Shown here one piece after another: positions 39,898 to 41,011 of a stretch of 64,000 nt of DNA (the first letter of the stretch is position 1; every line of letters starts with the position of its first letter). A program made the position numbers and the translations under genes. Origin of the DNA: Escherichia coli (GTDB lineage: Bacteria; Pseudomonadota; Gammaproteobacteria; Enterobacterales; Enterobacteriaceae). The DNA is taken from the NCBI RefSeq assembly GCF_003991155.1, contig NZ_CP031293.1. One strand, 5' to 3'. The notes under the pieces are model-generated. The model saw only the letters and a program-made list of their open reading frames with translations. It did not search any database and was not told where the DNA came from.

Positions 39898-40380
39898 TTG
39901 CCAACCATTAACGAAATAAAAGTAGAAGCAGTTAAATTTCGTAGATTAATTGAAAGTTGTGATAAAAAGAATACCAGCCTTGTTATAGACTGTTTTCCTG
40001 TTATGAGCTGTAAGCTTACCTCAATGCTTCTTTCTTACCATTTTCTGACACTATGGCCTGAATGTGAGCTAAAAGGAGTTAGCGCAGCTACCGGGAAAAA
40101 TAGTCAAATAACCCATTACTGGCTTGAGATAGATAATATTGTAGTTGATATAACAGGGGATCAATATAACATTATCAATGATAAGGAACTAAACAATAAA
40201 ATTATAAAAAACAGGCCATATCCTGCCATCCATGTCGTATATAAAGAAAGTAGTTATCTTTATAACTTATTCAAAATTCGAGATAAAGAACCTATTATAC
40301 ATGGATTTCCAACATTTAGTGAAGATTTTATTGAAGAAATGGAACTTGGATATAATCAACTATTCAACAGAAAAGAATGA
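39898..40380 (+). CDS. Hypothetical protein (160 aa, apparent TTG start)
   Basis: ORF directly downstream of mobA, same strand; no family recognised. Confidence 0.5.
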   Translation: MPTINEIKVEAVKFRRLIESCDKKNTSLVIDCFPVMSCKLTSMLLSYHFLTLWPECELKGVSAATGKNSQITHYWLEIDNIVVDITGDQYNIINDKELNNKIIKNRPYPAIHVVYKESSYLYNLFKIRDKEPIIHGFPTFSEDFIEEMELGYNQLFNRKE

Positions 40381-40438
40381 AATAATAGTTAAAATATTAT
40401 ACCTTACTGGTATGAATCATTATACTTAGGAGTTAATC

Positions 40439-41011
40439 ATGACAATGGAAATACTTACAGCAATTCTTGTTATCATTACAGGAATTTATGCATTTTTGAC
40501 ATACAAGATGTCGAGAATAAGCGAACGAACAGCTCAGATAATGAATGAGCAAACCGAGGCAATGTCTCGTCCTTATATAATAATCCAGCCAATGGTAAGA
40601 CCTCACTCGCAATTCCTATACCTGAAAATTTATAATAGCGGTAAGACACCAGCCTTGAATGTAAAATTAGAATTAGATAAGGATTTTTATCAGTTCGATG
40701 AACCAACTAAAAACCTAAAAGAAACAAGTGTTTTTACATCAACTATTGATAGCTTAGCGCCCAATCAAGAGTTATTCTTCGCCCTTGGTCAAGGTTGGGT
40801 TATTTTTGGAGAATCCAAAAACCCTTTACCACAACAATTTACAATAACTGCAACGTATAGTTATATGAATAAAGAAGTTGTTGAAAAAAACAATATAGAC
40901 TTAAGCCCTTTCATGCAAAGTGAAGGTGAGAAAAATCCTATTGTTGAAGAGCTTGAAAGAATAAGAAAAACTCAAGAAAAATTGATGAAGGTATCTAACA
41001 AATCGATATAA
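40439..41011 (+). CDS. Hypothetical membrane-anchored protein (190 aa)
   Basis: N-terminal hydrophobic helix ILTAILVIITGIYAFL then soluble domain; RBS AGGAG upstream. Confidence 0.55.
   Translation: MTMEILTAILVIITGIYAFLTYKMSRISERTAQIMNEQTEAMSRPYIIIQPMVRPHSQFLYLKIYNSGKTPALNVKLELDKDFYQFDEPTKNLKETSVFTSTIDSLAPNQELFFALGQGWVIFGESKNPLPQQFTITATYSYMNKEVVEKNNIDLSPFMQSEGEKNPIVEELERIRKTQEKLMKVSNKSI

Follow-up and report, generated by a model that had tools for sequence, protein, structure and literature searches.

The ROD21-like genomic islands known as EARL are excisable and mobilisable elements without a type IV secretion system (PMC6035254, PMC10763509, PMC3198454), and they have in common a backbone of integrase, PilV/PilS, TraD, the relaxase MobQ, SEN1982- and SEN1984-like lipoproteins, RepL, H-NS, an AlpA-like regulator and DUF6387. 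Between the relaxase gene (mobA) and the SEN1982 lipoprotein gene, ROD21 carries SEN1981, of 304 amino acids (aa) (PMC3198454); in ICEKp258.2, the slot after mobQ holds TPR and TIR genes (PMC6035254, PMC10763509). Here, we have analysed a window of 64,000 nucleotides (nt) of the Escherichia coli chromosome (contig NZ_CP031293.1), which contains an island with the same backbone and gene order as ROD21, ICEKp258.2 and the E. coli serU island, including the insertion at a tRNA gene, but which differs from ROD21 and ICEKp258.2 in the genes that follow mobQ. In this place stand two genes, ORF1 and ORF2 (Table 1), which are outside the published conserved core genes of EARL. The initial annotation had seen them as one cassette, possibly a small defence or exclusion module riding on the mobilisable element.

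Based on their distribution, the two genes are not a fixed two-gene system; they are two interchangeable occupants of the slot between mobQ and the lipoprotein gene. With moderate confidence, we read them as independent cargo of this slot, a putative cysteine enzyme (ORF1) and a predicted membrane-tethered DUF8453 protein (ORF2), each most likely with a defence-type role.

Results

ORF1 and ORF2 are mostly found apart

How often the two genes are neighbours was computed from a scan of one genome per species and from the complete genomes of E. coli. The scan gave 40 loci with relatives of ORF1 (cited below by their L numbers), roughly 24 of them with a full-length homologue, and among the latter ORF2 is missing from about 20 and is next door only in Yersinia aleksiciae (L011). 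Of 5,426 complete E. coli genomes, 119 carry ORF1-like DNA (70 at ≥90% identity and 49 at 60-80%), and 70 carry ORF2, always at ≥95% identity; these are the 70 carriers of the pair, and the 49 other genomes have an ORF1-like gene without ORF2. Outside EARL, all 10 distinct contexts of ORF2 that were examined are devoid of ORF1. The order MobQ-ORF1-ORF2 is restricted to EARL lineages, namely the type of the window, Y. aleksiciae (L011), a group of Enterobacterales (L054-57) and a Salmonella-like lineage (L064), and the divergence of both genes tracks that of MobQ in these lineages, which fits vertical retention of the pair within the island lineage. Genes of a two-gene system are expected to be neighbours across most of their range, whereas the pair is found in EARL islands only and separate occurrence dominates elsewhere. 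The proposal of a two-gene module is thus not sustained, and the lack of conservation as a pair, which the initial annotation had named beforehand as an argument against it, is largely what we observe.

The solitary copies of ORF1 occupy diverse positions. The gene directly follows a P4-type integrase at smpB/ssrA and precedes YfjJ/Gp2- and YfjI-like genes in L020, L022-25 and the E. coli locus L061. It lies between an integrase and a large primase-like gene in L018, and the same ORF1-to-primase-like order is seen in L021, the sequence of which ends just upstream of ORF1. It is found downstream of fused cas8/5, cas7 (Csy3) and cas6 (Csy4) in L013 and L017, and two genes from the antiviral reverse transcriptase Drt5 in L019. 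Several islands have ORF1 as their sole cargo between integrase and core genes. In Rheinheimera faecalis (L013, 2116-8474) and Pseudoalteromonas (L017), the homologues lie ~2.5 kb after a 641-aa Cas8/Cas5-like gene, Csy3 and Csy4; this arrangement, known here from the cas genes alone, is typical of type I-F3 CRISPR-associated Tn7-like transposons.

ORF2 without ORF1 is found between a transporter gene and an insertion sequence in Rhodocyclaceae, after glmS in a betaproteobacterium, near toxin-antitoxin genes in Halomonas, in Thiovibrio, Burkholderiaceae and one integrase-flanked locus, and, in a prophage, on the opposite strand near the terminase genes. In four Vibrio contexts (L050-L053, 8001-9236), one and the same 219-aa gene begins 13 nt after the homologue. 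This neighbour was rejected as a general partner, being conserved within Vibrio only, and the co-directional genes of 217-238 aa downstream of ORF2 in Vibrio, the prophage, Thiovibrio, Burkholderiaceae and L067 were rejected as a conserved partner, being mutually non-homologous. The 219-aa gene has a weak match to PDC-M22A (E = 5e-4), with Mrr and ApeA-HEPN genes nearby, and a 239-aa Vibrio gene near ORF2 shows weak similarity (BLASTP E = 0.008) to the DUF6338 gene adjoining ORF2 in L059. In Halomonas sp. (L058, 6621-8555), the ORF2 homologue is preceded, at a distance of 90 nt and on its own strand, by a 429-aa gene matching DzbB of Dazbog (E = 1e-11); a DzbA gene was not identified in this locus.

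ORF1 belongs to a family of putative Cys-His-Asp enzymes

No Pfam, NCBIfam or PADLOC model matches ORF1 above threshold. The best Pfam match is YunG (PF24585; independent E-value 0.003, below significance, residues 66-110 only). A homology search nevertheless returned 188 clusters, mainly from Enterobacterales, Aeromonas, Pseudoalteromonas and Acinetobacter, and a profile search of 1.8 billion representatives returned 322 clusters, mostly of 140-165 aa and matching residues 1-95. In our alignment of 41 members, down to 18% identity, seven residues are invariant (P34, C38, H73, W75, D84, T86 and Q89), within the motifs FPxGxC...SxLL, SHxWLE and IDITxDQ; the set includes a cysteine, a histidine and an aspartate, as a Cys-His-Asp enzyme would require. 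YunG is matched by 31 of the 41 members at E ≤ 0.1 and by 7 at E ≤ 0.001, and Transglut_core3 is weakly matched by 6 (best value in the family 0.026); judged by the curated models YunG, Transglut_core and Transglut_core3, all matches of ORF1 stay below threshold.

The fold class computed for ORF1 is alpha/beta, with the predicted nucleophile cysteine starting a helix that packs against a beta-sheet. A Foldseek search against AFDB50 retrieved the own family of ORF1 together with proteins annotated in UniProt as 'McjB C-terminal domain-containing' or 'transglutaminase-like'; effector deamidases and proteases (SseI, Cif, OspI, SpvD and Ceg10) are among the structural neighbours. In profile-sequence alignments with non-significant E-values, Cys38 falls on the catalytic cysteine of PeiW and of protein-glutaminase. 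We thus propose for ORF1 a papain/transglutaminase fold and the function of a soluble Cys-His-Asp enzyme, within a family outside the curated models; its catalysis and substrate are inferred. The initial annotation had found no recognisable family for either gene; this holds for the Pfam, NCBIfam and PADLOC models at their thresholds, whereas ORF1 has gained a predicted Cys-His-Asp transglutaminase/papain-like fold and ORF2 bears the name DUF8453. Its prediction of a cytosolic ORF1 product agrees with the absence of a transmembrane segment (Kyte-Doolittle maximum 1.45).

Among described proteins, McjB-C/Transglut_core3 and YunG come nearest to ORF1. The C-terminal domain of McjB (the B2 leader peptidase; Transglut_core3, PF13471) is comparable in being a small papain/transglutaminase-fold domain of ~140-160 aa, with a cysteine starting a helix and the histidine and aspartate on later strands, and UniProt applies the label 'McjB C-terminal domain-containing' to near-identical Salmonella fragments and to other members of the ORF1 family. 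In contrast to McjB-C, the ORF1 subfamily has a specific additional C-terminal region (residues ~95-160). A lasso-peptide protease was considered and rejected, because no cyclase, RRE/B1 or precursor gene is present within 10 kb or in the other contexts examined. YunG of Bacillus subtilis, the function of which is unknown, resembles ORF1 in size and in its H-x-W-L-E ... D-I-T-x-D-Q core and, being uncharacterised, gives it no function. LapG, protein-glutaminase, PeiW, SseI and Cif are only 8-12% identical to ORF1 (sequence-match E 0.1-1), which differs from them in being cytoplasmic and much smaller and in having no calcium-binding or pro-region features. A weak relative among the PHROGs (phrog_26734) is a phage family of unknown function. 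Literature searches on the two WP accessions and on transglutaminase-like anti-phage proteins found nothing, and a search on YunG gave nothing relevant.

ORF2 is a predicted membrane-tethered protein

The family of ORF2 comprises 136 clusters in a single-sequence search and 426 in a profile search, nearly all of 186-190 aa, from Enterobacterales, Vibrio, Halomonas, Psychrobacter, Rhodocyclaceae, Gallionellaceae, Burkholderiaceae, Rhodospirillales, Thiovibrio and Blastocatellia, with ~50% identity across these groups. No Pfam, NCBIfam or PADLOC model matches ORF2 above threshold, and the cluster members have neither a name beyond 'hypothetical protein' nor a precomputed Pfam domain. DUF8453 is a name only, taken from the RefSeq PGAP annotation of the identical protein (WP_000177655.1), for which the literature search found no paper and no solved structure was found; the Pfam copy searched did not return a model of this name.

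The single N-terminal transmembrane helix followed by a soluble domain, as described initially, is borne out by one hydrophobic helix at residues 3-21 (maximum of 2.06 over a 19-residue Kyte-Doolittle window) and by an AlphaFold2 model (pLDDT 83) with a folded domain after it; helical stalk, Ig-like beta-sandwich and C-terminal helix are delimited in Table 1. In 24 of 27 homologues, the membrane helix is preceded by no lysine or arginine and is directly followed by 2-4 of them. According to the positive-inside rule, this bias places the soluble domain on the cytoplasmic side, and the beta-sandwich and C-terminal helix are therefore probably cytoplasmic. A PHROG family of unknown function, phrog_9607, is a weak phage relative (E = 9e-8). 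Kinship was rejected (hhalign probability <1% in both cases) with an N-terminally similar 214-aa membrane protein encoded upstream of the ORF1 homologue in Rheinheimera (L013) and with a 245-aa Vibrio protein.

Mobilisation genes, plasmids and phages

Homology to MobB, MobC or other relaxosome accessory proteins, the second finding named beforehand as an argument against a defence module, was found for neither gene in Pfam, NCBIfam or PHROGs. Most of the 24 species-level loci that encode a full-length ORF1 homologue have no detectable MobQ, nor has any of the non-EARL contexts of ORF2 examined, and ROD21 and ICEKp258.2 have a relaxase and neither ORF1 nor ORF2 (ROD21 gene table in PMC3198454; PMC6035254, PMC10763509). 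A MobB/MobC-like accessory role was rejected on these two grounds, the lack of homology and of obligate linkage to a relaxase. Both genes are absent from 50,697 phage genomes, and 72,556 plasmids contain only five distant matches to ORF1 and one match to ORF2. A gene of plasmid leading regions or of phage counter-defence was rejected since both collections are essentially free of the two families, and chromosomal integrative-element cargo fits this near-absence better.

A variable slot behind mobQ and its defence genes

The stretch between mobQ and the SEN1982-like lipoprotein gene is a variable cargo slot, because ROD21, ICEKp258.2 and other islands hold different genes there. In L062, the slot contains TIR and macro genes with a relative of ORF1; in L002, a relative of ORF1 is followed by a 321-aa gene and PD-T7-5; and in the EARL loci L010, L014 and L062 extra genes separate mobQ from ORF1. 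The right border is conserved, with SEN1982-like lipoprotein homologues (50-92% identity) bordering the slot in L002, L010, L014, L054, L062 and L064. A 292-aa cysteine-rich hypothetical gene lies upstream of mobQ in the window (Table 1); its homologue in a Pluralibacter island (L014, 6889-7749, minus strand) lies between mobQ and the ORF1 homologue, and the gene thus moves within the island family.

Genes of known defence systems recur around both families. Thoeris is present in the window, Lamassu-like and PD-T7-5 genes in L002, Drt5 in L019, type I-F cas genes in L013 and L017, and TIR, macro and type III restriction genes in L061 and L062; nSTAND and OLD-type genes are close to the pair in L054. 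Relatives of ORF2 have Mrr and ApeA-HEPN genes nearby in Vibrio and a DzbB-like gene in Halomonas. The initial annotation had suggested checking whether homologues recur beside relaxase genes or in defence islands; the slot of related islands holds defence-type genes, and most ORF1 loci have no detectable MobQ. PADLOC-DB v2 gave no family for ORF1 or ORF2 at E ≤ 0.01 and detected ThsA and ThsB in the same window. From these neighbourhoods, a conflict-related role of ORF1 and ORF2 is plausible.

Gene models and expression signals

The initial gene models, two genes of 160 and 190 aa on the same strand with short gaps after the relaxase gene, were recovered with exactly the same coordinates, the gaps being 78 nt (mobQ-ORF1) and 58 nt (ORF1-ORF2). 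In comparison with homologues whose synonymous sites are near saturation, dN/dS is ~0.08-0.16 for both, so computed, and ORF1 and ORF2 are true coding genes under strong purifying selection. Each has a strong Shine-Dalgarno site 6 nt ahead of its start codon (Table 1). The TTG start of ORF1, also as annotated, is real because TTG or GTG is kept at the start residue in 15 of 16 homologues examined across genera (the window and L002, L010-L019, L022, L054, L061 and L064), with an AGGGAG/AAGGA-type site upstream. Conservation of a non-ATG start hints at selection for low translation, perhaps owing to toxicity of the protein at high dose.

In the interval between mobQ and ORF1, terminator and RNA-fold checks found neither a plus-strand terminator nor a stable structure, and a hairpin with a U-tract is placed between the convergent ORF2 and lipoprotein genes. 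The three genes mobQ, ORF1 and ORF2 thus probably form one transcription unit ending at this hairpin, as far as can be read from the sequence. An Rfam scan of positions 35000-43000 gave no match.

The island is a typical EARL member

The island (~21.9 kb) is flanked by the 14-bp direct repeat TGGCGGAGAGAGGG. Its gene names follow the RefSeq annotation of an identical E. coli locus. In order, the left part encodes a P4-type integrase, a VOC-family protein, PilV, a PilS-type pilin, TraD, three hypothetical proteins and MobQ (NF041496, 248 bits against a cut-off of 200); ORF1 and ORF2 are followed by the SEN1982-like lipoprotein, DUF4755, a SEN1984-family lipoprotein and type I Thoeris, and the right part encodes RepL, DUF4756, H-NS paralogues, an AlpA-like helix-turn-helix regulator and DUF6387. 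The P4-type integrase, the AlpA/DUF6387 end, MobQ with TraD, the type IV pilin genes, H-NS and the tRNA repeat are those of EARL, and the island is a typical member with no part outside known kinds; the idea that the two genes ride on a mobilisable element is hence well founded. The integrase gene lies at the island end far from the tRNA gene ('serU' island). According to PADLOC, the Thoeris system, 2 kb downstream of ORF1 and ORF2, is complete. An inverted repeat upstream of mobQ is a candidate hairpin of the origin of transfer (oriT).

Table 1. Coordinates of the features of the island in the window
Feature	Position	Strand	Details
Direct repeat TGGCGGAGAGAGGG	30925-30938 and 52861-52874		3' end of tRNA-Ser (CGA)
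Cys-rich hypothetical gene	36498-37376	+	292 aa
Inverted repeat CCTATACACTGC/GCAGTGTGTGGG	38197-38223		12-nt arms, 3-nt loop, 115 nt upstream of mobQ; candidate oriT hairpin
mobQ relaxase gene	38338-39819	+	493 aa; NCBIfam NF041496; homologue is SEN1980 of ROD21; RefSeq mobQ
Shine-Dalgarno AGGGAG of ORF1	39886-39891	+	6 nt 5' of TTG; sequence reading
ORF1	39898-40380	+	TTG start, 160 aa, soluble, predicted papain/transglutaminase-like fold; RefSeq WP_001142313.1 'hypothetical protein'
ORF1 invariant residues	Cys38 40009-40011; His73 40114-40116; Asp84 40147-40149	+	41-member alignment
Shine-Dalgarno AGGAG of ORF2	40428-40432	+	6 nt 5' of ATG; sequence reading
ORF2	40439-41011	+	ATG start, 190 aa; RefSeq WP_000177655.1 'DUF8453 domain-containing protein'
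ORF2 membrane anchor	40451-40501	+	residues ~5-21
ORF2 helical stalk		+	to residue 43
ORF2 Ig-like beta-sandwich	40577-40900	+	residues 47-154
ORF2 C-terminal helix	40937-41002	+	residues 167-188
Hairpin and U-tract 3' of ORF2	41049-41091	+	RNA fold -16.8 kcal/mol, z = -2.98, then UUUU
SEN1982-like lipoprotein gene	41105-41659	-	conserved right border of the variable slot; ROD21 gene table PMC3198454
ThsB	43002-43613	-	TIR, 203 aa; PADLOC E = 2.6e-85
ThsA	43630-45099	-	SIR2 + STALD/SLOG, 489-aa ORF; PADLOC E = 8.9e-203
ORF adjoining ThsA	45275-46237	-	320 aa; counterpart marked frameshifted by RefSeq in the identical E. coli locus
tRNA-Ser (CGA)	52861-52950	-	

Discussion

The scheme that we propose for the two genes starts from mobQ, from which ORF1 and ORF2 would be read through as a single transcript ending at the hairpin after ORF2, with ORF1 being made at a low level from its conserved TTG/GTG start. 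In ORF1, Cys38 would be the nucleophile and His73 and Asp84 would complete the catalytic triad, and the enzyme, with a protein or peptide as its substrate, would most likely function as a peptidase, amidase or deamidase. ORF2 would be tethered to the inner membrane by its N-terminal helix and would act as a single-gene unit. Both families appear to move separately between integrative elements and into defence-rich hotspots; this pattern makes a conflict role (of host or island against phage or mobile DNA) the most likely one for each, and this role would be in conflict and not in relaxosome function. Several observations weigh against this reading. The neighbourhood argument is one of guilt by association, drawn from about a dozen loci inspected by hand and not from statistical enrichment. 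Neither protein has a PADLOC match, no homology to a characterised protein favours defence, and ORF1 matches neither Pfam YunG nor Transglut_core3 above threshold. All 70 E. coli genomes with ORF2 also have ORF1, and the pair has stayed adjacent in several EARL lineages with saturated synonymous sites (L011, L054, L064), so that some cooperation between the two proteins may exist.

Should either gene turn out to give protection from phages or foreign DNA, the defence catalogue would gain a very small single-gene system, and the slot behind mobQ in ROD21-like islands would be a defence hotspot; in uropathogenic E. coli, this slot is the site of the TIR gene tcpC, and in K. pneumoniae ST258 that of the TPR-TIR genes. 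For annotation, 'hypothetical proteins' of the ORF1 type can be described as transglutaminase/McjB-C-like putative cysteine enzymes and DUF8453 as a solitary mobile gene, and ORF1 and ORF2 should not be scored as one system. The present analysis thus replaces the 'cassette' by two separate cargo genes, gives ORF1 a predicted fold and a candidate catalytic triad, and marks the slot behind mobQ as variable and defence-rich.

A more far-reaching version is tentative, and we would be inclined to bet against it: ORF1, as a minimal protease or deamidase of the Cys-His-Asp type, may stand for an unrecognised and widespread class of conflict enzymes encoded by single genes, and DUF8453 for a stand-alone membrane-tethered anti-phage or exclusion protein. 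Integrative and mobilisable elements, satellite-like islands and Tn7-like elements would then place ORF1 behind an integrase or relaxase gene with a weak TTG/GTG start, and each of the two would be a new defence or counter-defence family, carried by ~1-2% of E. coli genomes as well as by many other Proteobacteria.

ORF1 could also be a helper of transfer or establishment, which either processes a host or element protein during excision and transfer or neutralises a defence of the recipient. In two unrelated types of element, relatives of ORF1 are directly 3' of and co-directional with a mobility gene, MobQ in EARL and P4-type integrases in CP4-57-like and primase-carrying islands, and remote relatives follow a MobV relaxase in Ruminococcus elements; moreover, ORF1 consists of one small enzyme domain and has no sensor domain, as is the case for many counter-defence proteins. 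However, ORF1 is missing from ROD21, which is excisable and transferable, and from the excisable ICEKp258.2, it is found without an adjacent relaxase or integrase, for example beside Drt5 or cas genes, and plasmids and phages, in which counter-defence genes abound, are virtually free of it. We consider this role unlikely.

The same improbability attaches to ORF2 being a superinfection or entry exclusion protein that blocks DNA entry at the inner membrane. The single N-terminal anchor, the homologue located as an opposite-strand 'moron' beside prophage terminase genes and the weak kinship to phrog_9607 are in agreement with such a function, whereas ORF2 is absent from sequenced phages and conjugative plasmids and many of its homologues reside in environmental chromosomes with no phage or conjugation genes nearby. 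Its predicted cytoplasmic soluble domain would be unusual for blocking entry from outside, and ~50% identity across phyla suggests a conserved cellular target rather than one in the cognate element.

In a two-component module, ORF2 would sense or anchor and ORF1 would execute, the two acting jointly in abortive infection or exclusion. Adjacency, shared direction and probable co-transcription speak for it, as do the recurrence of the pair in divergent EARL lineages (window type, L011, L054-57, L064) and the constant company of ORF1 for ORF2 in E. coli. Nevertheless, most of the diversity of each family lies in genomes without the other, the 58-nt gap leaves no translational coupling, ORF2 has no conserved partner of any kind outside EARL islands and ORF1 is the sole cargo gene of several islands, which makes the module quite unlikely.

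Host-interaction or virulence cargo comparable to the TIR proteins TlpA and TcpC of related islands, with ORF1 as a deamidase or protease effector, is very improbable: effectors such as SseI, Cif, OspI, SpvD and Ceg10 are structural neighbours of ORF1 and ROD21-family islands contribute to virulence (PMC3198454, PMC6968874), but ORF1 has no evident secretion signal, the island has no annotated secretion system gene, and environmental Gammaproteobacteria commonly carry the ORF1 family, which extends remotely to Firmicutes.

Two of these remote settings can be described. In mitis-group Streptococcus (L038, L040, L042-L044 and L046), a remote YunG-like gene directly follows parE and is the first gene of a variable region, bounded by parE and parC, in which unrelated genes are found as well. 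In Butyrivibrio sp. INlla16 (L036, 923-7433), a remote YunG-like relative of ORF1 (152 aa) overlaps the end of herA, with its start lying 16 nt before that end, within a DUF4297-HerA anti-phage operon, and is followed by an adenosine deaminase gene.

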